Shown piece after piece: positions 1 through 12,056 of a stretch of DNA of 64,000 bases. The DNA lies in NCBI GenBank assembly GCA_040902895.1, contig JBBDWL010000047.1:12815-76814 (forward strand), written 5' to 3'. Below the pieces are notes generated by a model. The model was not told the origin of the DNA, ran no database searches, and was given only the letters and a program-made list of their open reading frames with translations. The stretch's first letter is position 1; each line of letters opens with the position of its first letter. A program made the position numbers and the translations under genes. The DNA comes from Vicinamibacterales bacterium. GTDB lineage: Bacteria; Acidobacteriota; Vicinamibacteria; Vicinamibacterales; SCN-69-37.

Positions 1-1
1 A

Positions 2-985
2 ATCAGCAATCGCCATCCGAGCCTATTCGCCAACATCCTCAAGAAGCGGATCGGACAGGTATTCAGAAAATTCCTGAAGGCCGGTGTCGTCATCGAGGTG
101 AACGAGCAGCGGGTCGAACCGGTCGACCCGTTAATGCTTGGCGACGCCGATACGGAATTGGCCCTCGAAATGGACATGGAAGTCGACGGCCTCGGCAAAG
201 CATATATTCGCGCCGTCGAGTTGCCAGACCGCGGCGGCCCGACGAACAAAGCTCTGGGCATCAACGCCGACAGTTCGGGATTCTACGTGGTCAGGAACAA
301 CCGCGAGATCATGGCGGCCGAAACCTTCGATTTCTACAAGAAGCATCCAGAATATGCGCACTTCCGCGCGGAACTGGCCTTCGGAGGTGAGCTCGATCCA
401 GCGTTCCACACTGATGTCAAGAAAATGGTGATTCAGCCGTCGCAGAGTTTCCTCGACAAACTCAAGCAGGCCACGATGGGGCTGATCACGAAATCACAGC
501 GCGAAAAGAAGAAGCGCGCCGGTGTCGAACGCGGAAAGATGGATCATTCGGCAGCAGAGGCGAACATCAGTCATCGCGCGACCCTTCTTCCGAAGGCACC
601 GGGAAAGGGTCTGACGGAGCCCCGTGCCCCACGCTCGACGAAGAAGGCGATAGGTGAGGCGAAGCCGACAGATGGAATGGCGAGGCTGAGGCCTCACGTC
701 ACTAGCATCAAGACGGCTTCTGGCTTGAAGGTCGCGTTCAACGAGGGAAACTTCGGCGAAGCTCCATTTTACTTGGTGAAGCAGGAAGGCAAGACGATCG
801 TGATCACGTATAACCGTGACCATCCGTTCTGGCGCGAGCTAGTGGTTTACTCGGACGAGACGAAGATTATCGCGTTATTCGACTATTTGGTGTTCGCTCT
901 CGCGAACACGGAACTTCTCGTACCGGAGCAGGCAGAGGTCGTGAAGGCGAACGTCAATTCGACCTTGATCGGCCTCCTCGTGTAG
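2..985 (+). CDS. GHKL-type (HATPase_c_3 / MORC-like) ATP-binding protein, C-terminal part; the 5' end lies outside the window
   Basis: The frame of listed ORF 98..985 stays open back to nt 2 (ISNRHPSLFANILKKRIGQVFRKFLKAGVVIEVNEQRVEPVDPL...). The middle region (GFYVVRNNREI, FHTDVKKMVIQPSQSF) matches what I remember of HATPase_c_3 proteins encoded beside RM genes. Its 3' end overlaps the convergent methyltransferase gene by 32 bp. Confidence 0.55.
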   Translation: MSNRHPSLFANILKKRIGQVFRKFLKAGVVIEVNEQRVEPVDPLMLGDADTELALEMDMEVDGLGKAYIRAVELPDRGGPTNKALGINADSSGFYVVRNNREIMAAETFDFYKKHPEYAHFRAELAFGGELDPAFHTDVKKMVIQPSQSFLDKLKQATMGLITKSQREKKKRAGVERGKMDHSAAEANISHRATLLPKAPGKGLTEPRAPRSTKKAIGEAKPTDGMARLRPHVTSIKTASGLKVAFNEGNFGEAPFYLVKQEGKTIVITYNRDHPFWRELVVYSDETKIIALFDYLVFALANTELLVPEQAEVVKANVNSTLIGLLV

Positions 986-2969
986 CGGGCTGGTCTCCGA
1001 TCGTGGGATGAACTCCAGGTTTGTCACTGTATGGCGCGGCGCCGACTTCAAAGACGCCGCGCCGTCGTTCGAGCACACGATCAGAGCGCCGGGTCACCAA
1101 GACGGCAACAAAATGTCGTTGAGTGATTGCACTCATCACGACGGCCGCGTTTGCCTTCATCCTATCGAGAATGGCCGTCACCGCTGTCAACGGAGGGAGT
1201 TCCTGCCCGATCCCGCGGACGATAATTCCAGACCGCAGCCGCCGCTCCCCCTTCTTTAGAACGAACGTGCCCACCGCGTGCGTGCGCGTCGCTGCGCCGT
1301 TCGACTCTATGCGCGAGATCGTGACTTGCCCGACCCGGAATAGCGCATCCGACACCTTCTTCCTCGACAGATAATCAGCGAGCGCGTCGTCGGAGATCCG
1401 GCCGTGTCCAATAGCAGGCACCCTCGTCGCTAGCGTGATCTCCTCACTGCTGACAGTAATGAAGTCGCGAGCCTCCAAAGTGCCGACCGTCCCCTTGCGA
1501 ACGAACCGACCGTATGTTCCGTTTTCGTTTACTGGAACGATGGACAGTCCTTCAGCAAGAACGCCAGACATGATCCAGCGTCTATTTCGGCTACGCGCGA
1601 TGTCTTGTAGAAAACGATCGGGCGGAGTTCGCGGCATTTTCGCGTCTGTGTCCTTGTACGCCTGTCGAACATCGTCAACACTGAATGCTGGCCGGCGGAC
1701 TCGCCCCCGGCCGATAACTCCCGCCTTTTCCAACAGCCGATCAAGAACCTTAGGCCACTCGTCAACTTGAGGAATGCGTCCGTGATGCTTGGCCGCATCC
1801 GGGGGCAACGAAAACTCGTTCGTGAGCTTCAATACCTTCGAGGGCCGCAGCACCTCAGCGTCAAGGGCACGAATAATCGAGCCACCGAGCGCACGCGCGA
1901 TCGGCGGGCATACGGAATTCCCGATCTGGCGGTGCGCATGCCACTTCACAGGGTAGAAGTCGAACCAGTCAGGATAGCCATGAAGGCGCGCCGCTTCCCG
2001 GACGGTGATGCATCGGGGCTCGTACGGATGAATCGGCCGCGGTGCATTGTATGAGCCGTGCTCGCTGTCGGTGCCGGCGCGCAACGTTGGAGCGAGACCA
2101 TCGGGATCAAGGCGCGGCAGATTATGCGCGGGCACCGTTGCACCAGGAGCAGTGGCAGCATAAAGCCGTTCGATTTCTGGACGGTGCTTGACGCGGCGGC
2201 AGCCAGTCACCTTGGAATTATCCCAATCCCGTCGCCATGAGAGATCGCACGGATCCGCCCTGAGGCCGCGGGCAGCGAGGACGTACGGATGCAGGTCGTG
2301 GCCAACTTTGCGATATTCGCTCGTGTCTAGCTTCAAGAGATCTTCGCGCTCGCCCAACGCTGGGAGATCTTCTATCGCTTGCCACACGGTGGGGCGCGCT
2401 GGCTGTTCCTTGCAAGGGCCAGTCGGATAGACCGCCTCGCCGCCTCGCTCCTTCAGGATGCCGATGACGAACAGCCTTTCTCGTCGTTGCGGAACCCCGA
2501 AATCCGCTGCGTTTAACGTTCGCACTGGCGCCGTAATGTTGTAGTGGTTCGACAGTCGGTCGATCGTTCGTTCAAACACGACAGCTGTTGCACCGCTCTG
2601 CATACCGGGGACGTTTTCCATCAAGAATGCAGCTGGCATTACCTCCATCACCAGACGGGCAAAATGGTCGACGAGCGTGTTGCGAGGGTCGGCGACGTAT
2701 CGTTTGCCCATTGTGCTGAAGCCCTGGCATGGCGGGCCGCCACAAATCAGACCTATATCCTTGGTCCCGGCAAGCGCGATGAGCTCGGATCCCGTGAGGG
2801 AGTCAACGCTGGCACACTGAACCTTCCCATGCGGAAAGTTCCGCTGGTGGGTCGCCACGTGGTACGGATCGCGATCGATCGCTAGAACAACGTCGAAGCC
2901 CGCCTGCTCGAGGCCAAGGGATAGCCCGCCGGCGCCCGCGTACAAATCAATTGCAATAGGACGGCTCAT
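954..2969 (-). CDS. DNA (cytosine-5)-methyltransferase with a ~290-aa uncharacterised C-terminal extension
   Basis: Canonical C5-MTase motifs appear in order: DLYAGAGG (I), GGPPCQGFS (IV, catalytic Cys), ENVPG (VI), QRRERLFVIG (VIII), GNSVCPPIARALG (X). The MTase core ends near residue 380 of 671. The remainder has no motif I recognise. The ATGA start/stop overlaps the upstream gene. Confidence 0.9.
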   Translation of the reverse strand: MSRPIAIDLYAGAGGLSLGLEQAGFDVVLAIDRDPYHVATHQRNFPHGKVQCASVDSLTGSELIALAGTKDIGLICGGPPCQGFSTMGKRYVADPRNTLVDHFARLVMEVMPAAFLMENVPGMQSGATAVVFERTIDRLSNHYNITAPVRTLNAADFGVPQRRERLFVIGILKERGGEAVYPTGPCKEQPARPTVWQAIEDLPALGEREDLLKLDTSEYRKVGHDLHPYVLAARGLRADPCDLSWRRDWDNSKVTGCRRVKHRPEIERLYAATAPGATVPAHNLPRLDPDGLAPTLRAGTDSEHGSYNAPRPIHPYEPRCITVREAARLHGYPDWFDFYPVKWHAHRQIGNSVCPPIARALGGSIIRALDAEVLRPSKVLKLTNEFSLPPDAAKHHGRIPQVDEWPKVLDRLLEKAGVIGRGRVRRPAFSVDDVRQAYKDTDAKMPRTPPDRFLQDIARSRNRRWIMSGVLAEGLSIVPVNENGTYGRFVRKGTVGTLEARDFITVSSEEITLATRVPAIGHGRISDDALADYLSRKKVSDALFRVGQVTISRIESNGAATRTHAVGTFVLKKGERRLRSGIIVRGIGQELPPLTAVTAILDRMKANAAVVMSAITQRHFVAVLVTRRSDRVLERRRGVFEVGAAPYSDKPGVHPTIGDQPATRGGRSRSN

Positions 2970-3814
2970 GACGCCGCGGCGCGACGATTAACGCACAACA
3001 AGTTGATCGCACATGAAGAGCATCGCGGAGACACGGCGACGCACGTTTCTCGGCCGTGTGCGACTGCGTTGACGTGCAGCGAGTAGCGGATATCTTCAGG
3101 GACTGCGGCCTGAAGCGGCTCTTGTGCGTATTCGAAGCGCATGCGGGCGCGGATCAATCCCAGGTTTTGGAAGAGACGCATGCAGTGCGTGTCGACCGGA
3201 AATACCGCGCGGTCGAGCGCGTAGAGCATGACGCACCGAGCAGTCTTCAAGCCGACGCCAGGCAACGTGATGAGATAACGCTCAAGATGTTCCGTATCCA
3301 TGCGCCGAAACGCGCCGGCGGAAAGGCTGCCGAAGTCTCTCGTGATCTTGCGGAGCAGGCTCGTAATCTGTCTCGCCTTCACACGACTCAGGCCAGCCTC
3401 GCGAATGACTCGCTGTACGTCGGAAACGCTCGCATCGCGAACGTTTTCCCACGTGCCGAAATGACGGCGAAGCCGGCGGTAGATCGCCTCATGATTGCCG
3501 CCTTGGGTCCGGGCCGACAGAATGATGAAAACGAGCTCGCTGACCACGTCCCGCTTGTTACCGAGACGAGGGGTGCCATACCGGCGAGCGAGGCGTTGGT
3601 TCGCTCGCAGAAGCAAAGAGGCGGCTCGCTGAGGATGGCTAGCCAGCGGACGCGCCGCAGATAAGCTATTATTTTTCAATGACTTATGGCGCATGAACTG
3701 GGTCGTTACCGCCGCGCAAATCACATCGAGTTTAGGTCCTTCAGAATACCATCCCGCCGCATCGGAAAGCCGACGAAGTCGAGGTGGGATGCCCGGTGCC
3801 GTGGCCTCCGTCAC
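2966..3814 (-). CDS. HhH-GPD superfamily DNA glycosylase, endonuclease III (Nth)-like, with a 4Fe-4S cluster loop
   Basis: The helix-hairpin-helix LPGVGLKTARCV carries Lys at the Nth K120-equivalent position. The catalytic Asp lies in FPVDTHCMRL. The C-terminal CVAVSPRCSSCAINLLC gives the Nth C-x6-C-x2-C-x5-C spacing. The GTG start overlaps the upstream stop (GTGA). Confidence 0.85.
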   Translation of the reverse strand: MTEATAPGIPPRLRRLSDAAGWYSEGPKLDVICAAVTTQFMRHKSLKNNSLSAARPLASHPQRAASLLLRANQRLARRYGTPRLGNKRDVVSELVFIILSARTQGGNHEAIYRRLRRHFGTWENVRDASVSDVQRVIREAGLSRVKARQITSLLRKITRDFGSLSAGAFRRMDTEHLERYLITLPGVGLKTARCVMLYALDRAVFPVDTHCMRLFQNLGLIRARMRFEYAQEPLQAAVPEDIRYSLHVNAVAHGRETCVAVSPRCSSCAINLLCVNRRAAAS

Positions 3815-4752
3815 GGTATCCCCCGCATGTAGTACGGCGAATACCGGTGGAACGTGGCGTACTGCTTGAACATCTCGTTGCTCTCAGTCGGGTCCTCATC
3901 TATTCGATAACCGAGCGCCCGACGTAAAGTCCGTCCGGAACTCTGCCGCGCAGGCAAGAAGTCCTGGAGATACAGACGCTCCTTTGTGGTGAGTACGGGC
4001 ACGGCGATTCGTTTCGGTGATGCCCAGTGCAGGCTCGCAAAGGGCCAATCTGCAAAGTGATCGCGAATCTCAGCTCTATCGACGCGTCGGCAGACGATTC
4101 CAGTGACCGTGAGCATCGGCGTCGCGTCGGCGTAGAAGAACGAGCACAGCGGCTGATAAGCAAACGGGTTCGTCCCAGGAAACGCGCGCTGGGCCGCGAC
4201 ACGCACCATCGTTTGAACGAGGCGGGCGAATCCCTCTTTGCTAGACGGTGGAGCGGCATTCGGATCCGGCAAAAGCGCGGCAAATTCCTGCTTGAAGGAC
4301 TCCACCTGTTCTGGCCTGAGGTAATCAGCCGACCGGGATCGAAGAGTGATTTTGACCACGCTGTTTACTGCAACCTTCGACAGCAGGGCTTCGAAATCTG
4401 CTAGATCCGCATACGCGAGGCGCATGTAATCGAGCCAAAAGATGCTTTTCCGATCTCGCGATTGGTATTGCGCGATGAACGAATGGAGATCCGTTCGCCG
4501 TAGCCTTAGGTGTCGGCAGGGGAGATGAAACTTCTGCCGTTTGATGACCTCCGCATCGGTCTCAATCGACACCATGCGAATGTTTTCATCGACGTCGTAA
4601 AGTGATCGGAAGTCCTCCAAGTACGGCCCGCCGAGGCTGTGATACGTGTAGTCAGCCAGTCGTTCGCGCCGATCTAGGCGCCGAAGGACATCCATGAATG
4701 CCAGGCGATCGACCGCTTTATTCGGCCTGATCTGATAATTGAGCTGGCTCAC
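3811..4752 (-). CDS. Hypothetical protein (313 aa); possible Rossmann/SAM-MTase-like fold
   Basis: A long ORF with coding-like composition, coupled by 4-nt start/stop overlaps on both sides. The weak motif order YHSLGGPYLED ... MVSIETD ... IFWLDY resembles MTase motifs I/II/IV. This is a guess only. Confidence 0.6.
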   Translation of the reverse strand: MSQLNYQIRPNKAVDRLAFMDVLRRLDRRERLADYTYHSLGGPYLEDFRSLYDVDENIRMVSIETDAEVIKRQKFHLPCRHLRLRRTDLHSFIAQYQSRDRKSIFWLDYMRLAYADLADFEALLSKVAVNSVVKITLRSRSADYLRPEQVESFKQEFAALLPDPNAAPPSSKEGFARLVQTMVRVAAQRAFPGTNPFAYQPLCSFFYADATPMLTVTGIVCRRVDRAEIRDHFADWPFASLHWASPKRIAVPVLTTKERLYLQDFLPARQSSGRTLRRALGYRIDEDPTESNEMFKQYATFHRYSPYYMRGIP

Positions 4753-6167
4753 CGCGTCGCCTCCCTCAGCGCCAATTCAAAACACTGCTCCCCGACCGCG
4801 GAGGGAGGCACGGCAGAATCCTCAAAGAGGTACTCTGACACTCGCCGAATCTCGTCGATGTCGCGGCTGAACGTGATCCTGCGAGTACGCCCCTCGACGG
4901 CCTTGGGCATCGGCAGCGACGGCGTGTACTGCTGGCCGATCGGTACGGTGCGGCGCGTTGTGACGAAGGCGAGTTGACGTGCCCGCTCTTTTAGCTGCGT
5001 TAGCGCTAGCGCCTCTCCCTGCTTGATGTGCTGCTGTGACTCCTCGGCGAGCCCCTTCCATTTGTTTGTGTAATCGACGAACAGACGCATGCCTTCTCGC
5101 ATCTTGTTTTTGATTTGCAGATACAGCGCCGAAGACGCATCGACACCGCGCTTCGTCGTCGTGGTGGGCAGTTTCGAAGGGTCGTCGGATTTGAATTCGA
5201 CAATCCCAGCAATGGCGATGAACTGATTGTGGTAGCGCGGCACGCTGGCTTCACCCCAGCCAGTCAACTCGGTGCGGTCGCAATAGAGAACTGCTCGCTC
5301 GTTGCAGACGATCGTCCATCCCGCATCGAGAGACGAGTATTTCGTTTCCTCCTGCTCACTGGCGGCTTCGTCTTGCGATGGAATGGGTCTAGTTAGACCG
5401 ACTGCTAGAAACACGCTCACGTCGTCCGCTTCCGCTTTGAAGATAAACGGCTGGATCGCCGGTTGCTTGCTGCGAGGCTCTTTCCTTCCAAAGATCAGCT
5501 TGATCGGCTTGGGTTTAACACGTGTTCCGTTGATTGATACCGCAAAACCTCTCTCGATAATGAATGCATAGTGGGTCGCAATCATCCGACTCAGGTCGGA
5601 TTCAAAGGCTTCAGCATTTTCGGTGAAGCGCGCCTTGATGCCCGGGTACAAATGACCGATGACAATCTCGGTGCCGTCCTTCTTTTTGGTGCGAGTCGCG
5701 GCGGCGACTGGAATGTCCCAGAGGTTCTCGTCGGCGAGCCATTTCGGAGTGATTTCAATTTCGTACCTGTCGTCGGCGTTCTGAGTGGAGATGAGGCAGT
5801 GACGGCCCATCTTGAACATCGCCCGCTTCAAACCAATCCCGTAGACGCCGATCGTGCCCGGAGCGCGATCGGAACGATTCGGATCTGGTCCCATTCGAAA
5901 GGCGTAGTTATATAACTTCCAGGGAATGCCGCCACAGTTGTCCGAGATCGAAAAGGAGTCTTTGTTGAATTCGATCTCCGCCTTGTAGCCGGCGTACGGT
6001 TGATCTCCGTCCGTGCCGTTCTGTCGATGGATTCCATCGACACAGTTGTCGAGGAGGTCGAGGATCGCTTCTTCGAGGGTTATGTCGCGCGTGAGCATCG
6101 ACACGAAGAACGACTTGACGGGCGATGCGTCGACCGATGGGTATTCCTTATCTGCTGTGGCCGCCAT
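4749..6167 (-). CDS. GHKL-family ATPase (HATPase_c_3 / MORC-Hsp90-like)
   Basis: Bergerat-fold motifs are present: EAILDLLDNCVDG (N-box), ISDNCGGI (D-x-G-x-G), GVYGIGLKRAMFKMG (G2 box). An AGGAG lies about 8 nt upstream of the ATG at 6167. It is the first structural gene of the operon. Confidence 0.8.
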   Translation of the reverse strand: MAATADKEYPSVDASPVKSFFVSMLTRDITLEEAILDLLDNCVDGIHRQNGTDGDQPYAGYKAEIEFNKDSFSISDNCGGIPWKLYNYAFRMGPDPNRSDRAPGTIGVYGIGLKRAMFKMGRHCLISTQNADDRYEIEITPKWLADENLWDIPVAAATRTKKKDGTEIVIGHLYPGIKARFTENAEAFESDLSRMIATHYAFIIERGFAVSINGTRVKPKPIKLIFGRKEPRSKQPAIQPFIFKAEADDVSVFLAVGLTRPIPSQDEAASEQEETKYSSLDAGWTIVCNERAVLYCDRTELTGWGEASVPRYHNQFIAIAGIVEFKSDDPSKLPTTTTKRGVDASSALYLQIKNKMREGMRLFVDYTNKWKGLAEESQQHIKQGEALALTQLKERARQLAFVTTRRTVPIGQQYTPSLPMPKAVEGRTRRITFSRDIDEIRRVSEYLFEDSAVPPSAVGEQCFELALREATR

Positions 6168-6188
6168 CGAGCTGCTCCTGATCGAGAT

Positions 6189-6425
6189 CTAAGACCGTTC
6201 AAGTTTGGCGATGATGCCAGCGGGGTTGAGTGATAGGGCGCGCGCAACCTCAATGAATTCAAGAACATCCAGGCGCCGCTCTCCACGTTCGAACTTGGAG
6301 ACGAACGACTGCGGACGTCCAAGCTTCTTCGCAAGAGCCACTTGGGTTACGCCTGCCGCGCGGCGTGCTTCGACGAGAACCCTTCGAAATTGTTCGTGCT
6401 TACGGGTGAAGGCCGACCTCGTCAC
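6189..6425 (-). CDS. XRE-family helix-turn-helix transcriptional regulator (controller-protein-like)
   Basis: GVTQVALAKKLGRPQSFVSKFERGERRLDVLEFIEVARAL is a classic Cro/C1 HTH. It ends 21 bp upstream of the GHKL gene start. The start is uncertain: I chose GTG at 6425, and the ORF is open to 6485. Confidence 0.75.
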   Translation of the reverse strand: MTRSAFTRKHEQFRRVLVEARRAAGVTQVALAKKLGRPQSFVSKFERGERRLDVLEFIEVARALSLNPAGIIAKLERS

Positions 6426-6570
6426 CGGGGCAGTCTCTATCCCGTCTTGGAATATCCCAAAACGGGTTCGCACCCCCACCCCCACCCCACGACAGTTCCA
6501 CGCTGGAGACCGCGTGAGGCGACGCGGTGGCCGCGCAGTTCGGTGATCGACTTGGACGGCTGACGTGACG

Positions 6571-6957
6571 TCAGTCGAACGCCCAGAGAACTTCCACGGG
6601 AGAGGAATCCTTCACTTCAAGCGCCTTCCCCCGTCCGGCGTACGTGAACGGATCCCTCGTGTTCGTTCGCCAGAAAATGTGAACCGGAGTCGCCGGGTCT
6701 ACGAGTCGCCTTACTTGCGGCTGGCGGGTCGATGACCCCGTCTTGGCGAACCAACGAAGGTGGCTGCCCTCCCGCGCGTTGGCGTAGTCGTGGCCCGTAC
6801 GCCCGGCGGTACCGACATTGGCGAAGACGCACGCAGCCCCTCCGTGCTCGTGGTACCCCGTGAACCAGTTTCCGCCCCACGTGTGCTCTGGCAGCCCGAG
6901 CAGTCGAAGAACGTCTCGCTGCGTGTAAAGCGCTCCGCGTTTGAAGAGAACCGACAT
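6571..6957 (-). CDS. Small stand-alone protein resembling the C-terminal module of DUF3427-type helicase/nuclease defence proteins
   Basis: YTQRDVLRLLGL...GYHEHGGAACVFANVG...GHDYANA...LRWFAKTGSS...VHIFWRT...FTYAGRGKALEV fits my recollection of the DUF3427 pattern. This is unverified. Confidence 0.4.
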   Translation of the reverse strand: MSVLFKRGALYTQRDVLRLLGLPEHTWGGNWFTGYHEHGGAACVFANVGTAGRTGHDYANAREGSHLRWFAKTGSSTRQPQVRRLVDPATPVHIFWRTNTRDPFTYAGRGKALEVKDSSPVEVLWAFD

Positions 6958-7326
6958 AAGCAGGGACCTGAGACTCGCCAGTCGTAAATCCGTACCCGAA
7001 TCGCTCTGTTCGCAGATGTGGCGAGAGACGCGGGGATCGGAACGCGGGGAATCTCGTCCAAAACGATAGCCGAAATTGTTCGGGATGCACTAGCAGCGGC
7101 AGGAGCGGGCGAAGGCTCCGCCACGGTCAGCATGGTTCACGAGTATCTGGAGACGGTGGAGCCGCGTGCGCCCAGCGCGCCTGGTTGACGTGTCTATGTT
7201 AGTAGACAGCTAGAAGCGCGACCCCTATATAGACATTGATGACGGCTCGGCACCTCCGACGCATTCTGGGGGCTGCGTCGACGCGCAAACTGGCGACAAG
7301 CCGAACCTGCTTGGGCGCTCCGCTCG

Positions 7327-7623
7327 CTAACCACACTTGTACTTCCTTACAGCGATTACAAGGACACTGCCAAGAAAGAGGAACGCCGCAATTATCGGCA
7401 AACTGCTGGAGTCCTGATCCCGCGAGTCAGACGTCTCGTCTGTCGAGGTCGAGGGCATGTCGGTCGTTTGTCCAACAACTACATCTCGGAAGATTGCGCT
7501 CGTTCGTCCATTCCCTCGTAGTAGTAGATTGATAAGCTTTACGTCGCCAGATACCGGGCCGAGTTCAATCTCCGACCTGACAACGGCGTCCGGGCGGAAC
7601 ATCCGCCGGCTATGCCCTCGCAC
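7327..7623 (-). CDS. Small tail-anchored membrane protein (hypothetical)
   Basis: A single C-terminal hydrophobic helix, LPIIAAFLFLGSVLVIAV, is followed by RKYKCG. It lies in the lowest-GC stretch of the window. The start is ambiguous (GTG at 7623 or an ATG 7 codons in). Confidence 0.4.
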   Translation of the reverse strand: MRGHSRRMFRPDAVVRSEIELGPVSGDVKLINLLLRGNGRTSAIFRDVVVGQTTDMPSTSTDETSDSRDQDSSSLPIIAAFLFLGSVLVIAVRKYKCG

Positions 7624-7626
7624 CTC

Positions 7627-7830
7627 CTACGCTTGCCACGGTCGAAATGGATTGACCGCGTCGAGGTCGTACTTTTCCGCGAACCAGCGCACGAACTCCT
7701 CTGGCGATTCGCCCGCCTGGAATGCAGCCTGCAACGGTTCGACGTCGCCCGCCAAGTCTGGCCAGCTACACGCTAGATGCACCCGACAAAGTGCATCAAC
7801 CCTCTCAGACCACTCTTGAAAGGCGTCCAT
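7627..7830 (-). CDS. Small acidic hypothetical protein (67 aa)
   Basis: The ORF lies immediately upstream of, and in tandem with, 7327..7623. I recognise no motif. Confidence 0.4.
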   Translation of the reverse strand: MDAFQEWSERVDALCRVHLACSWPDLAGDVEPLQAAFQAGESPEEFVRWFAEKYDLDAVNPFRPWQA

Positions 7831-7918
7831 GGCCGCCCATGCTACCCAGGGTCATCTGCTGGAACAACCGTCGATTGACGCTCGGACAAATCCCTTCCAA
7901 ACAGGCTAGGATTCGACC

Positions 7919-8761
7919 GTGCCTCCGCAGCCTTGGTCCGTCCCGGAAGTCGAGGCGACCGTCGCAGCCTACTTTGAGATGCTGCGGCTGGAGCTTGCGG
8001 GCATTCCCTACCAGAAATCCGACTTCAACTCCCGGCTGAGAACGGTCCTTGACAATCGGAGCAAGGCGGCCGTCGAGTACAAGTTCCAGAACATCTCCGC
8101 GGTGCTCATCAATCAGGGGCAGGGATACATTCGTGGCTACCTGCCGGCACAGAACTACCAACGTATGCTCGAGACCGCCGTACTCGAGTGGCTCGAGGGC
8201 GCCGATCAACTGGTCGATGTCATCGACACAAGTCCAGTGCTGAATCCACCTGACGCCGCGGCGTCGCCGGCCTTCTCCGCGCTCGTCTCCTCACCGCCAG
8301 AACGTGCCCGCGCGGCGCGTGAGCCCCAGTTCAAAGCCGGACGGATCGACTTTGTGCGGCGTGATGCCGAGAACCGGGCGCTGGGGCAGCGCGGTGAAGA
8401 ATTCGCCTTCGATCTCGAACGGCAGCGGCTGCATGACGAGGCCGGACGTCCGGACCTTGCTCGGCGTGTCCGCTGGGTGGCGCGCGACGAGGGTGACGGC
8501 CTTGGTTATGACATTTCTTCGTTTGCCGCCAGCGGCGAAGCGCGATTGATTGAAGTCAAGACCACTGGTCTCGGGAAGTACTTTCCGTTCGCGCTCACGC
8601 GAAACGAGCTCGATTGCTCGCGCCGCGAACGGGAACGCTATCAGCTGTATCGATTCTTCGACTTCGGACGCTCGACTGGTCTCTACGTTCTTGACGGCGC
8701 GCTTGACGATGTCTGCATCCTGACGCCGACGATGTTTCGCGCGTCAGCAGGCAAGGCCTGA
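7919..8761 (+). CDS. DUF3883 (PD-(D/E)XK-like) domain protein with an N-terminal domain seen in putative restriction enzymes
   Basis: The C-terminal GDGLGYDISSFAASGEARLIEVKTTGLGKYFPFALTRNELDCSRRERERYQLYRFFDF matches the DUF3883 signature (GYDI..IEVK..T.nE..y.LyR). The N-terminal RSKAAVEYKFQNISAVL motif recurs in HNH/Mrr-type proteins as I remember them. Confidence 0.7.
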   Translation: MPPQPWSVPEVEATVAAYFEMLRLELAGIPYQKSDFNSRLRTVLDNRSKAAVEYKFQNISAVLINQGQGYIRGYLPAQNYQRMLETAVLEWLEGADQLVDVIDTSPVLNPPDAAASPAFSALVSSPPERARAAREPQFKAGRIDFVRRDAENRALGQRGEEFAFDLERQRLHDEAGRPDLARRVRWVARDEGDGLGYDISSFAASGEARLIEVKTTGLGKYFPFALTRNELDCSRRERERYQLYRFFDFGRSTGLYVLDGALDDVCILTPTMFRASAGKA

Positions 8762-9068: not shown

Positions 9069-9145
9069 TCATCGATCAGTTTCGGATTACTTTCCGCTGG
9101 GAACAGGGGCATGCCTACGAAGTCCGCGTCGAAGACTATCACTAA
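9056..9145 (+). pseudogene. higB (RelE-like toxin) gene fragment, 3' portion only
   Basis: Only the last ~28 codons (SIRIIDQFRITFRWEQGHAYEVRVEDYH) look like a HigB C-terminus (..ysiRin.qwRi.F.w..g.a.dV...DYH). Everything upstream in that frame is antisense to the vapC fragment. Confidence 0.65.
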
Positions 9146-9416
9146 AGATCCGGACTGGCTGGGACCGGCGATTTCACCCGGCGAGATTCTGCTCGAGGAG
9201 TTTCTGAAGCCGCTCGCACTCTCCCAGGTCGAGGCGGCATCACGGCTGGAGATCTCGCTGAACAGGCTCAACGAGATTGTCCTGGGAAAGCGGCGCATCA
9301 CGGCCGACACCGCCCTGAGGCTGTCGCGACTTCTGAAGACCTCCGCCCAGTTCTGGATGCGGCTGCAGGCCGATTGGAACCTGCACGAGGCGATCAAGGC
9401 CCGAAAAGCCTCCTGA
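9111..9416 (+). CDS. higA: HigA-family antitoxin (XRE HTH)
   Basis: SPGEILLEEFLKPLALSQVEAASRLEISLNRLNEIVLGKRRITADTALRLSRLLKTSAQFWMRLQADWNL is the HigA addiction-module antidote signature. Confidence 0.85.
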   Translation: MPTKSASKTITKDPDWLGPAISPGEILLEEFLKPLALSQVEAASRLEISLNRLNEIVLGKRRITADTALRLSRLLKTSAQFWMRLQADWNLHEAIKARKAS

Positions 9417-9715
9417 CCGCTAGCCGGAGACAATCACCAGCGCCTGCCACCCGTAACGTACCAGCCTCGCCGCTTCATACTCTCAGCATGAGGCACACAC
9501 TCCTTTCCACGTTACTCCTCGTCAGCCTGGCGGTCCCTGCGGCGGCCCAGAGCCCGGCCGCCCCGCTCACGATGGTGAAGGCGGACGGGCTGCCGACGGT
9601 CTTTCTCACCGACCTCCAGGGCGCGGAGCATCGCGGGCAGCTGATCCGCGTGGCCCCGGACGAGGTCGTCCTGCTCGGGACCAGCGGCGAGCGTACGTTC
9701 AGGCGCAAGGTTCTG

Positions 9716-10132
9716 ATGCGGTACTTCGACGCCAGTGCCCTCGCAAAGCGGTACCTCATTGAGGCGGGCAGTGCAGAGGTCACGGAGCGTCTCGAACATC
9801 CGGCATCCACCAGCAGGCTGTCGGCAGTCGAAGTGGCTTCGGCAATCGTGCGCCGTTCGCGCGAGGACAAGTACTCGCGGGAAGATCGGGACCGGGCACT
9901 GCAGGCGCTGTCGCGCGATCTGGAAGACATGCTCGTCGTCGAATTGAGTGCGGACGTCGCGGCACTCGCGGCAAGGCTTCTTGTCAGTCACCCCGTTCGA
10001 TCATCGGATGCGATCCATCTCGCAAGTTGTCTGGCACTTGGCGCCGGCCTCGGCGCCGACATCCCATTCGTCGTCTTCGATGCCCGGCTCCGTGCCGCAG
10101 CCACAGCCGAGGACCTCCTGGTGGAACCATGA
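9716..10132 (+). CDS. vapC: PIN-domain toxin VapC with no cognate antitoxin gene; the ORF is open upstream to 9488/9374
   Basis: MRYFDASALAKRYLIE..., the later SSDAIHLASCL, and FVVFDARL supply the PIN acidic residues. The upstream in-frame 76 codons start with a signal peptide (MRHTLLSTLLLVSLAVPAAAQ). The stop overlaps the next gene's ATG (ATGA). Confidence 0.75.
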   Translation: MRYFDASALAKRYLIEAGSAEVTERLEHPASTSRLSAVEVASAIVRRSREDKYSREDRDRALQALSRDLEDMLVVELSADVAALAARLLVSHPVRSSDAIHLASCLALGAGLGADIPFVVFDARLRAAATAEDLLVEP

Positions 10133-11619
10133 AGCGCATCGCCGCCCTGGGCGCTCTTCTCTCTCTTCTCGTCGGCTGCGCGACCACGCCGCCCGGGCCA
10201 CAGTCCGAGCCGGCCGCCGGCCTCGTCACCGCCACGATCCTGCAACTCAATGACGTCTACGAGATCATGCCGCTTGGCGGCAGTGGACTGGGCGGGCTGG
10301 CGCGCGTGGCGACGCTGAAGAAGCAGCTGCTGCGGGAAGACCCGAACACGTTCATGGTGCTCGCGGGCGATGTGTTGAGTCCGTCCGCGATGAGCAGTGC
10401 GCGCGCGGGCGATGGCGGCGCGGCCCTCAATGGGCAGCACATGGTCGACATCATGAACCGCATCGGACTCGACTACGCGACGTTCGGGAATCATGAGTTC
10501 GATCTGCGCAAGGCCGACTTCGACAAGCGGATGGCGGAGTCGAAGTTCACGTGGTTCTCGTCCAACGTGCTGGGCGAAGATGGCAAGCCGTTTCCGAATG
10601 TGCCGGCGAATGTCGTGGTTGCGGCGAAGGGCGGCGGCCGCGAGCTGCGCATCGGGATGTTCGGGCTCACGATCGACAGCAACGCCGCGGCGTATGTGCG
10701 GTATCGCGATCCGTTCGAGACTGCGCGCGCGCAGATGGCTGACCTGAAAGGGAAGTCCGACGTCATCGTCGCGCTCACGCATCTGGCCATCGATCAGGAT
10801 GTCGCACTGGCAGAAACAGTGCCCGGTCTCGCGATGATCCTCGGCGGTCACGAGCACCAGAACATAAACGTGCAGCGCGGCAATGAGTTCGTGCCGGTCC
10901 TGAAGGCCGATTCGAACGCGAAGTCGGTCTATGTGCACCTCCTGCGCTACGACACGCAGACGAGCCGGCTGAGTATCGACTCGAAACTGATCGAAGTCGA
11001 TGACTCCATACCGGAAGATCCCGAAGTCGCCGCCGCCGCGCGCGCGTGGGTCGACAAGGCGTTCGCGGCATTCAGGAAAGACGGTATCGATCCGGACAAG
11101 ACCGTCACGACGCTCACCGAAATGCTCGAGGGACGCGAGGCCGCCGTGCGCAACGGCAGCACGAACCTCACTCGGGTGCTGAACGCCGCGATGATCGACG
11201 CGTTCGCCGGCGCTGATGCCTCGATCTACAACAGCGGCTCCATCCGCATCGACGATACGCTCGGCCCAGGGCCGATCACGCAGTACGACGTGCTGCGCGT
11301 GCTGCCGTATCGCGGCGATCTGTTGCTGACCAGCATGAAAGGGTCCCTGCTCGCGAAGATTCTGGCAGCCGGCTCCGAGGACTCGCGCCGCGGACAGGGC
11401 GGCGGGCTGCAGTCCGCCGGCGTGGATCCAAAGACCATCGACCCCAACCGCGACTACCGCGTCGTCATCAACGACTACTTATTGAATGGAAACGAACGCG
11501 GGCTCGAATGGATCAAGCCCGAGACGTCGGGCATCAAGGTGCTGCCCGACGCACCGAAGGAGTTCCGGCAGGCGGTAATCGAGCGGCTGTCGAGCGCGCG
11601 GGCGAAGCTGGCGGCCTGA
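10129..11619 (+). CDS. Bifunctional metallophosphatase / 5'-nucleotidase family lipoprotein
   Basis: It has a lipobox (LLVGC) and metallophosphoesterase motifs NDVYEI, GDVLSPS, GNHEFD, GGHEHQ. A 5'-nucleotidase-type C-terminal domain follows. Confidence 0.85.
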   Translation: MKRIAALGALLSLLVGCATTPPGPQSEPAAGLVTATILQLNDVYEIMPLGGSGLGGLARVATLKKQLLREDPNTFMVLAGDVLSPSAMSSARAGDGGAALNGQHMVDIMNRIGLDYATFGNHEFDLRKADFDKRMAESKFTWFSSNVLGEDGKPFPNVPANVVVAAKGGGRELRIGMFGLTIDSNAAAYVRYRDPFETARAQMADLKGKSDVIVALTHLAIDQDVALAETVPGLAMILGGHEHQNINVQRGNEFVPVLKADSNAKSVYVHLLRYDTQTSRLSIDSKLIEVDDSIPEDPEVAAAARAWVDKAFAAFRKDGIDPDKTVTTLTEMLEGREAAVRNGSTNLTRVLNAAMIDAFAGADASIYNSGSIRIDDTLGPGPITQYDVLRVLPYRGDLLLTSMKGSLLAKILAAGSEDSRRGQGGGLQSAGVDPKTIDPNRDYRVVINDYLLNGNERGLEWIKPETSGIKVLPDAPKEFRQAVIERLSSARAKLAA

Positions 11620-11639: not shown

Positions 11640-12056
11640 TCAGAAAGGGTTCTCGATCAGGAGCCCCGCGATCGACTGGTCCGCATTCAGATCTTCCGAC
11701 AAGACCCGGGCGGCGCCGGCCCTCGCGGCAACAGCGAGGATCAGGGCATCCCAGAAACTGATCTTCGCGGTGTCCTCTATCTCATACGCCGCAGTGAGGT
11801 CGGCCGGCGTTGGGCCTTCGACGCACCAGGGCGCATAGGTGCTGACGATGCCGCGGGCGGTCGGCTTTGACAACGGCGCCGATATCTTCCGCGTGGCGTT
11901 CACGTAGAACTCCTGCAACACCTGCATGCTCAGCACGCCCGATCGTTCTTCCCACAGTTCGCGCAGACGAGCCGCCGCCACGTCATGCTTCGCACCGGCG
12001 TCGACGTCGTGCGCGTAGATCAGCACGTTCGTATCGACGAAGGTCCTATCGTTCAT
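11640..12056 (-). CDS. vapC: PIN-domain toxin VapC
   Basis: FVDTNVLIYA ... QVLQEFY ... FWDALILAVA ... LSEDL carries the PIN acidic quartet. It overlaps the upstream antitoxin gene by 11 nt. Confidence 0.85.
   Translation of the reverse strand: MNDRTFVDTNVLIYAHDVDAGAKHDVAAARLRELWEERSGVLSMQVLQEFYVNATRKISAPLSKPTARGIVSTYAPWCVEGPTPADLTAAYEIEDTAKISFWDALILAVAARAGAARVLSEDLNADQSIAGLLIENPF

Follow-up and report, generated by a model that had tools for sequence, protein, structure and literature searches.

An endonuclease III (EndoIII)-family DNA glycosylase, encoded directly beside a C5 cytosine DNA methyltransferase (MTase) in a Vicinamibacterales genome (contig JBBDWL010000047.1, of which a stretch of 64,000 nucleotides, hereafter the window, was analyzed), is likely to be a base-excision repair enzyme dedicated to its methylase. 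We assume that it counteracts the T:G mismatches that arise by deamination of 5-methylcytosine (5mC) and that it represents a non-homologous functional replacement of the repair endonuclease Vsr. Four observations carry this proposal: the catalytic apparatus of EndoIII is intact, relatives of the glycosylase are linked and frequently fused to C5-MTases, this linkage is independent of the remaining partner genes, and the glycosylase and Vsr exclude each other within the same type of gene system. Both the T:G (and U:G) substrate and a function of the active-site lysine K190 as in Nth or ROS1 are predictions from sequence comparison. Among the mutational costs of cytosine methylation, deamination of 5mC is the largest, and the dedicated prokaryotic countermeasures found in textbooks are Vsr and the archaeal plasmid enzyme Mig. 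While repair enzymes dedicated to a C5-MTase are thus already known, the large independent bacterial lineage described here, its invariant lysine, its frequent MTase fusions and its reciprocal alternation with Vsr are new. The data point to a third lineage of countermeasures, widespread and unannotated, in which the Schiff-base lysine, which Mig had to give up, is preserved.

An intact glycosylase of the EndoIII family

The glycosylase is encoded by the third of four minus-strand genes (GHKL ATPase, PF20553 protein, glycosylase, C5-MTase), each of which overlaps the next by 4 bp. Its longest open reading frame (ORF) extends over positions 2966–3814 and encodes 282 aa from a GTG codon, comprising an HhH-GPD domain and a 4Fe–4S loop. 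The helix-hairpin-helix (HhH) motif LPGVGLKTA (L184–A192; 3239–3265, minus strand) contains K190 (codon 3245–3247), the VDTH motif (V207–H210; 3185–3196, minus strand) contains the catalytic D208 (codon 3191–3193), and the iron–sulfur (FeS) loop reads C258-x6-C265-x2-C268-x5-C274 (2993–3043, minus strand). These three features had been recognized in an earlier reading of the window made from the sequence alone (the sequence-only reading), and all of them were reproduced in a MAFFT alignment with E. coli Nth (EcNth), Mig.MthI and the core of E. coli MutY (EcMutY), reference sequences that were 100% identical to PDB 2abk, 1kea and 1kg2, respectively. K190 aligned with EcNth K120, D208 with EcNth D138, and C258, C265, C268 and C274 with the cluster ligands of EcNth. 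Since the residues aligned with K190 are Y126 in Mig.MthI and S120 in EcMutY, the alignment also confirmed the proposed difference from these two enzymes at the position of the lyase lysine. The reported neighborhood of a C5-MTase was equally correct, as the adjoining gene matched PF00145 with E = 5.7e-59 and overlaps the glycosylase gene by 4 bp.

Residues 1–44 are unconserved among homologs and were disordered in an AlphaFold2 (AF2) model; the true start is therefore probably the ATG at 3694 (M41), giving a protein of 242 aa. The GenBank version (P0002, 193 aa, "hypothetical protein") begins at V90 and is too short, as it drops about 40 conserved residues including the segment YGTPRLGNKR.

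The window glycosylase matched the Pfam family HhH-GPD (PF00730) with E = 1.1e-12, and its best sequence match in the PDB was EndoIII-1 of D. radiodurans (DrEndoIII1; E = 1.7e-34). The AF2 model, calculated from 57 homologs, showed a predicted local distance difference test (pLDDT) score >90 across residues 61–282. Top matches obtained with Foldseek belonged to the EndoIII family throughout, with TM-scores normalized to target length (TMt) of 0.78–0.86, and ranked in the order EndoIII-1, EndoIII-3, Geobacillus and E. coli Nth, ROS1, NTHL1, Mig, MutY. With its HhH-GPD fold and with Lys, Asp and four Cys at canonical positions, the protein belongs to the EndoIII/Nth superfamily. It stayed, however, below the cutoffs of all the family models tried: the nearest NCBIfam model, NF053634 (DR2438/EndoIII-1), gave 127.6 bits (cutoff 400), the nth model TIGR01083 86.1 bits (cutoff 211.7) and PRK10702 56.2 bits (cutoff 405), while the mutY model scored 22.8. 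In a neighbor-joining tree (about 195 alignment columns, 200 bootstraps, support by split counting) 28 MTase-linked glycosylases formed a single clade with 99.5% bootstrap support. DrEndoIII1 was placed outside this clade as its sister (100%), and the clade was separated from canonical Nth (Ec, Gst and 9nzc; 90%) as well as from Mig and MutY (94.5%). Identities to the window glycosylase amounted to 35.6% for DrEndoIII1, 28.5% for EcNth, 25.3% for Mig and 17.8% for MutY.

Comparison with other glycosylases and nucleases of restriction–modification (R-M) systems further narrowed the assignment. With enzymes of the Mig.MthI type the window protein shares the adjacent C5-MTase, but neither the tyrosine nor the affinity to MutY. 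A match to the PADLOC model "Type II nicking endonuclease" (PDLC03398, 8e-11) was rejected as support for a Mig-type enzyme and attributed to generic similarity, because this model is Mig.MthI itself (1.4e-161) and E. coli Nth (3.8e-21) outscores the window protein. The fold is that of EndoIII and not the half-pipe of R.PabI-type restriction glycosylases, and the protein has an HhH-GPD domain instead of any similarity to the Vsr fold (PF03852). Taken together, profile scores, tree and the PDLC03398 comparison classify the window protein as neither a housekeeping Nth nor a relative of Mig. Since Mig has Tyr126, groups with MutY, is 25% identical and defines a model on which the window protein scores poorly, our comparisons point to a recruitment of the clade that was independent of Mig and started from the Nth/EndoIII-1 side of the family.

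A HMMER search against 1.84 billion cluster representatives returned 7237 matches at E ≤ 1e-3 and 344 at E ≤ 1e-30. The latter 344 clusters (at 50% identity) constitute the clade, which spans Acidobacteriota, Gemmatimonadota, Proteobacteria, Chloroflexota, Planctomycetota, Firmicutes and others. Lysine at the lyase position was kept in 312 of 312 proteins, namely in 120/120 close homologs, 42/42 locus-derived proteins and 150/150 best representatives; among these best 150, Asp was present in 148 and the FeS motif in 130. A subclade within the 42 locus-derived proteins, which belongs to the three-gene systems discussed below, has the HhH motif LPGVSxKVA and retains the lysine as well. This conservation indicates that the residue is under strong selection. 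None of the curated models names the clade, and source labels read "endonuclease III" or "hypothetical". In the searchable literature (subscription journals and REBASE lie outside it) we found no description of the clade and nothing specific on MTase-linked bacterial EndoIII proteins or on PF20553/Methyltransf_35. Plasmid and phage collections yielded Nth-like matches only (≤35% identity) and no informative annotated relative. A distant EndoIII-like gene (<35% identity) occurs in 205 plasmid records; 127 of these represent conjugative plasmids, and Klebsiella, Escherichia or Enterobacter account for many of the records.

Obligate linkage to C5-MTases and changing partners

A scan of one genome per species revealed 27 glycosylase loci with 35–70% identity in at least 12 phyla or classes. 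Together with contigs carrying metagenome homologs and with loci found through PF20553, these formed a set of 50 loci, which were typed by tblastn thresholds. A C5-MTase adjoined the clade member in 49 of the 50, with a median gap of 35 bp between the high-scoring segment pairs (HSPs). The sole exception, L006, is a deletion remnant in which a truncated glycosylase abuts a truncated restriction endonuclease (REase), the MTase having been deleted (9487–10414). Another locus, L029 (7000–10700), is decayed, with glycosylase and MTase split across several frames, which may reflect frameshifts or long-read errors. Furthermore, at least 20 of the best 150 cluster representatives are fusions with a complete C5-MTase; they are contained in the 24 of these 150 that reach a length of 480 aa or more. 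Both orders of the two domains occur (examples are L022, P0259 and P0264). The partner MTases share 30–63% identity with one another.

The gene surroundings vary in step with the glycosylase subclades, which we termed G1 to G4. Subclade G1, to which the window protein belongs, combines a long MTase with a Type II REase (PADLOC PDLC03404; L001, L004, L005 and L029; E values from 1e-25 to 1.5e-110), and in G2 the glycosylase is followed by the MTase and then by an REase of the PDLC03404 family. In G3 the MTase precedes the glycosylase, beside an SNF2 helicase operon, while in G4 a glycosylase–MTase fusion comes after HD-CE, ORC/CDC6-like and CARF6-like genes. A further architecture contains GHKL and PF20553 genes, so that at least four architectures have only the MTase in common. 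The coupling of the glycosylase to C5-MTases is obligate and indifferent to the restriction partner.

Two further fusions concern single clade members. P0387 (680 aa) is fused to a MutH/Sau3AI-like Type II REase (PF02976; PADLOC PDLC03553, 1e-71), and P0347 is fused to Mur-ligase domains, which may be a gene-calling artefact.

Reciprocal alternation with Vsr

Homologs of the PF20553 protein of the window (about 50% identity) were found in triads of Dcm, GHKL and PF20553 genes in which Vsr (PF03852) forms the fourth gene. A metagenome scan seeded with the PF20553 alignment alone yielded 80 loci, 53 of which contained the whole Dcm–GHKL–PF20553 triad; the queries for Vsr included Pfam-labelled Vsr sequences from L033, L034 and L036. 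The fourth gene was Vsr in 24 triads and the glycosylase in 19, while 10 had neither and not a single one had both (one-sided Fisher test for mutual exclusivity, p = 1.7e-7). Eight of the 10 triads with neither gene had a flank of less than 700 bp on truncated contigs, and two had space for a fourth gene but none was present. Vsr-type and glycosylase-type triads were equally similar to the window proteins (GHKL 61% vs 63%, PF20553 49% vs 49%). With E. coli Vsr as the tblastn query, neither the window nor L001–L031 (the 27 glycosylase-seeded genome loci and four contigs carrying homologs) yielded a Vsr homolog. Given 24 triads with Vsr, 19 with the glycosylase and none with both, the glycosylase occupies the slot of Vsr: this is a non-orthologous displacement, and the same system uses either enzyme. 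Operons of GHKL/paraMORC, Dcm and Vsr were described in 2008 as predicted R-M systems, with no glycosylase mentioned (PMC2292703).

The combination of Dcm, a GHKL ATPase (about 470 aa) and PF20553 is a common conserved three-gene system (window 3811–6167; loci L032–L117). It is not represented by a PADLOC model and contains no recognizable nuclease apart from Vsr or the glycosylase.

Proposed function and competing explanations

According to our proposal, the partner C5-MTase would generate 5mC, the deamination of which would lead to T:G mismatches that are invisible to ordinary uracil repair. The glycosylase would flip out and remove the mismatched T (probably also U) opposite G by Nth/ROS1-type chemistry, in which D208 would activate K190 and the [4Fe–4S] loop would aid DNA binding. 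It may then nick the strand by β-elimination, and the AP (apurinic/apyrimidinic) endonuclease, polymerase and ligase of the host would restore the C:G pair. The invariance of the lysine marks it as a needed residue, whichever step it serves. From this lysine, the sequence-only reading had predicted a bifunctional, strand-nicking enzyme. A lysine at this position of the HhH motif is indeed the textbook diagnostic of bifunctional glycosylases (PMC3045615), but the prediction was overstated: DrEndoIII1 has both residues, Lys and Asp, but behaves for the most part like a monofunctional enzyme (PMC10523315), and the lysine is thus no proof of lyase activity.

Several points weigh against T:G as the substrate. 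The nearest characterized relative, DrEndoIII1, acts on thymine glycol and single-stranded DNA (ssDNA) and, according to what has been reported, not on T:G (PMC10523315). The earlier statement that a Tyr-to-Lys exchange turns Mig into an AP lyase was accurate as far as the gain of lyase activity is concerned, but this gain comes at the cost of T:G/U:G glycosylase activity (PMC9945173). As the exchange abolishes T:G excision in Mig, the lysine clade, if it consists of T:G enzymes, would have to recognize thymine in another way. Moreover, the operon in the window is without a recognizable nuclease, so a second role of the glycosylase is possible there. The mutual exclusivity with Vsr demonstrates the same niche, not strictly the same substrate. 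In favor of T:G, ROS1 is an example of a lysine-bearing member of the EndoIII family that works on this mismatch (T:G-bound structure PDB 7yho, among the fold matches).

The most serious rival is the repair of another lesion associated with either 5mC or the MTase, such as thymine glycol (Tg) or 5-hydroxymethyluracil (5hmU) opposite G, U:G from MTase-promoted deamination, or 3-methylcytosine (3mC) from side reactions. We regard this as conceivable, though rather improbable; the protein would still assist the MTase in repair without being a T:G enzyme in the strict sense. Such a role would agree with the processing of thymine glycol and ssDNA lesions by DrEndoIII1 (PMC10523315) and with the Nth-type Lys/Asp pair, which is typical of oxidized-pyrimidine glycosylases, and the linkage to Dcm is compatible with any lesion caused by an MTase. 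However, Vsr, which is replaced one-for-one, is T:G-specific, and oxidized pyrimidines are already covered by housekeeping Nth.

Another unlikely variant extends the T:G enzyme rather than replacing it: the protein could double as a DNA-cutting arm or, in a milder version, be a lysine-dependent bifunctional glycosylase/lyase in a complex with the MTase. The idea of a double duty arises because the Dcm–GHKL–PF20553 systems show no nuclease besides Vsr or the glycosylase. MutL stimulates Vsr, and by analogy the MutL-like GHKL ATPase may license the glycosylase, with the invariant lysine supplying the nicking activity. The milder version, if true, would represent a third, independent way in which bacteria cope with 5mC deamination, and a mechanistic parallel to plant ROS1/DME.

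We consider it very unlikely that the protein is an effector, i.e. a glycosylase/lyase of the restriction type that would introduce nicks into unmethylated or foreign DNA, with the host protected by the MTase. This assumption could draw on the retained Lys and Asp, on the lack of another recognizable DNA-cleaving enzyme in the window operon and in the triads, and on the fusion of P0387 to an REase. However, close relatives stand beside a separate Type II REase, the partner module switches while the MTase remains constant, and the glycosylase is interchangeable with Vsr, a mismatch-repair nickase. Two triads with space for a fourth gene do without one. In addition, the protein is a bare catalytic core of about 200 aa with no extra domain for reading sequence, and the paired MTases are merely 30–63% identical to one another. 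The sequence-only reading had rated an effector role as no less fitting than repair, which is not supported in view of the invariant MTase, the varying partners (including a Type II REase) and the exclusivity with Vsr.

A ROS1/DEMETER-like 5mC glycosylase that erases off-target or foreign 5mC appears hardly plausible. ROS1 is itself a lysine-bearing FeS member of the family and was recovered with E = 1.9e-14 by sequence and E = 2.4e-07 by fold, but the window protein is no nearer to ROS1 than to ordinary Nth and lacks the DEMETER-like (DML) insertion and C-terminal domain. Excision of the 5mC made by a translationally coupled or even fused MTase would also be futile and self-damaging, and the replacement by Vsr favors mismatch repair. 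Finally, a displaced housekeeping Nth with oxidized-pyrimidine specificity, adjacent to the MTase by chance, can practically be excluded, in line with the sequence-only reading: although the protein is a full EndoIII-family member with all catalytic residues and no second nth was found within the 64-kb window, it scores below the cutoffs of TIGR01083 and PRK10702, is placed outside the Nth clade by the tree, belongs to a group whose linkage to C5-MTases extends over at least 12 phyla or classes and includes fusions, and resides in a low-GC island (0.58–0.60 vs about 0.66).

We therefore retain methylase-dedicated repair of T:G mismatches as the likely function. If the T:G activity is true, the annotation "endonuclease III" should cease for genes of this clade. 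The enzymes would then offer a bacterial model for the recognition of a normal thymine by lysine-type EndoIII, a problem solved by ROS1/DME, and the MTase–glycosylase fusions would be natural write-and-proofread enzymes.

The operon and its surroundings

The first gene of the operon (4749–6167, minus strand) encodes a paraMORC-like GHKL ATPase of 472 aa (HATPase_c_3, PF13589). It is followed by the gene for the PF20553 (Methyltransf_35) protein of 313 aa (3811–4752, minus strand; E = 3.7e-63), the stop codon of which shares the sequence GTGA with the GTG start of the glycosylase ORF. An AF2 model of the PF20553 protein (pLDDT 90.5) showed a class I S-adenosylmethionine (SAM)-dependent MTase fold with Trm1 as the best PDB match; the possibility that this protein is a disguised nuclease was rejected on the basis of this fold. 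The stop codon of the glycosylase in turn overlaps the ATG of the C5-MTase by 4 bp (ATGA at 2966–2969). The MTase (954–2969, minus strand; 671 aa) contains its catalytic domain in residues 7–366, with the motifs PCQ, ENV, QRRER and GNSV, and a C-terminal extension of about 290 aa (954–1814, minus strand). This extension had no PDB match and no Pfam match even at E ≤ 5, and a word-index search gave a single homolog, too few for a structure-prediction alignment. It is common only to the MTases of the window's glycosylase subclade (L001–L005, L029 and L052). Comparisons with Pfam, PADLOC and PDB and of AF2 folds revealed no recognizable nuclease in the operon apart from the glycosylase, and the PDLC03404 REase was not found in the 64-kb window.

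Upstream of the operon, a small HTH_3 protein (6189–6485, minus strand; PF01381, 3.4e-09; PADLOC Control_protein, 3.1e-06) is a possible controller (C) protein of the R-M type. On the other side, a second GHKL ATPase converges on the MTase (2–985, plus strand), of which the C-terminal two thirds are present, the gene being cut by the window edge. The C-terminal halves of both GHKL proteins had no Pfam or PDB match and showed no recognizable nuclease. The second GHKL protein is 66% identical to a 496-aa protein of L004, itself MzaB-like (3e-29); an Mza-like system may thus lie just beyond the left edge of the window. The GC content is 0.58–0.60 over positions 1–8000 and about 0.66 elsewhere, which places the operon in a low-GC island. 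Scans for promoters, terminators and tRNAs near the operon gave nothing above background.

The same island contains a gene for a NOV_C-domain protein (7919–8761, plus strand) with a full-length match to PADLOC PDC-S36, a candidate defence gene (2.7e-93). A 128-aa ORF (6571–6957, minus strand) has a match confined to the central part of DUF3427 (profile positions 127–244 of 280) and is probably a gene fragment. Further along, an HTH_3 protein (9111–9416) is followed by a PIN-domain ORF (9374–10132), and a second PIN protein is encoded at 11640–12056. These HTH_3/PIN genes are probable toxin–antitoxin modules on either side of a 5′-nucleotidase/metallophosphoesterase gene (10027–11619).

Comparison with known systems

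Vsr (PF03852) is the closest counterpart in terms of gene context. Like the window clade, it accompanies C5-MTases as an accessory irrespective of the other components of the R-M or defence system, occupies the same slot and alternates with the glycosylase in Dcm–GHKL–PF20553 systems, in line with the GHKL, Dcm and Vsr operons described (PMC2292703). Fold and chemistry are, however, unrelated: Vsr, an endonuclease, nicks the strand on the 5′ side of the mismatched T, whereas the HhH-GPD/FeS glycosylase of the window would excise the base and may then cut on the 3′ side by β-elimination. Mig.MthI (PDB 1kea), encoded beside M.MthTI, resembles the window protein in its EndoIII-superfamily fold, its FeS loop, its C5-MTase neighbor and its presumed role on T:G. 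It differs in having Tyr126 in place of Lys190, at 25% identity, and groups with MutY (94.5%), while the window clade groups with DrEndoIII1 and Nth.

DrEndoIII1 (DR2438; PDB 4unf; NF053634) is the closest solved and characterized relative and the best fold match, and it shares a 9-residue insertion before the HhH motif as well as the same Lys, Asp and FeS ligands. It lies, however, outside the MTase-linked clade and is mostly monofunctional on oxidized pyrimidines and ssDNA (PMC10523315). The plant enzymes ROS1/DEMETER are likewise lysine-dependent FeS proteins of the EndoIII family that act on 5mC and T:G (PDB 7yho, 7yhp and 7yhq), and ROS1 has been described as bifunctional (PMC3045615); in contrast to the window protein, these eukaryotic enzymes are large, their glycosylase domain is split and they carry additional domains. 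END nucleases, finally, also illustrate the recruitment of an EndoIII-like domain to a defence context (PMC12191111), but their domains have lost the catalytic residues and act as nuclease-fused sensors, whereas in the window clade the lysine is invariant and the aspartate conserved.

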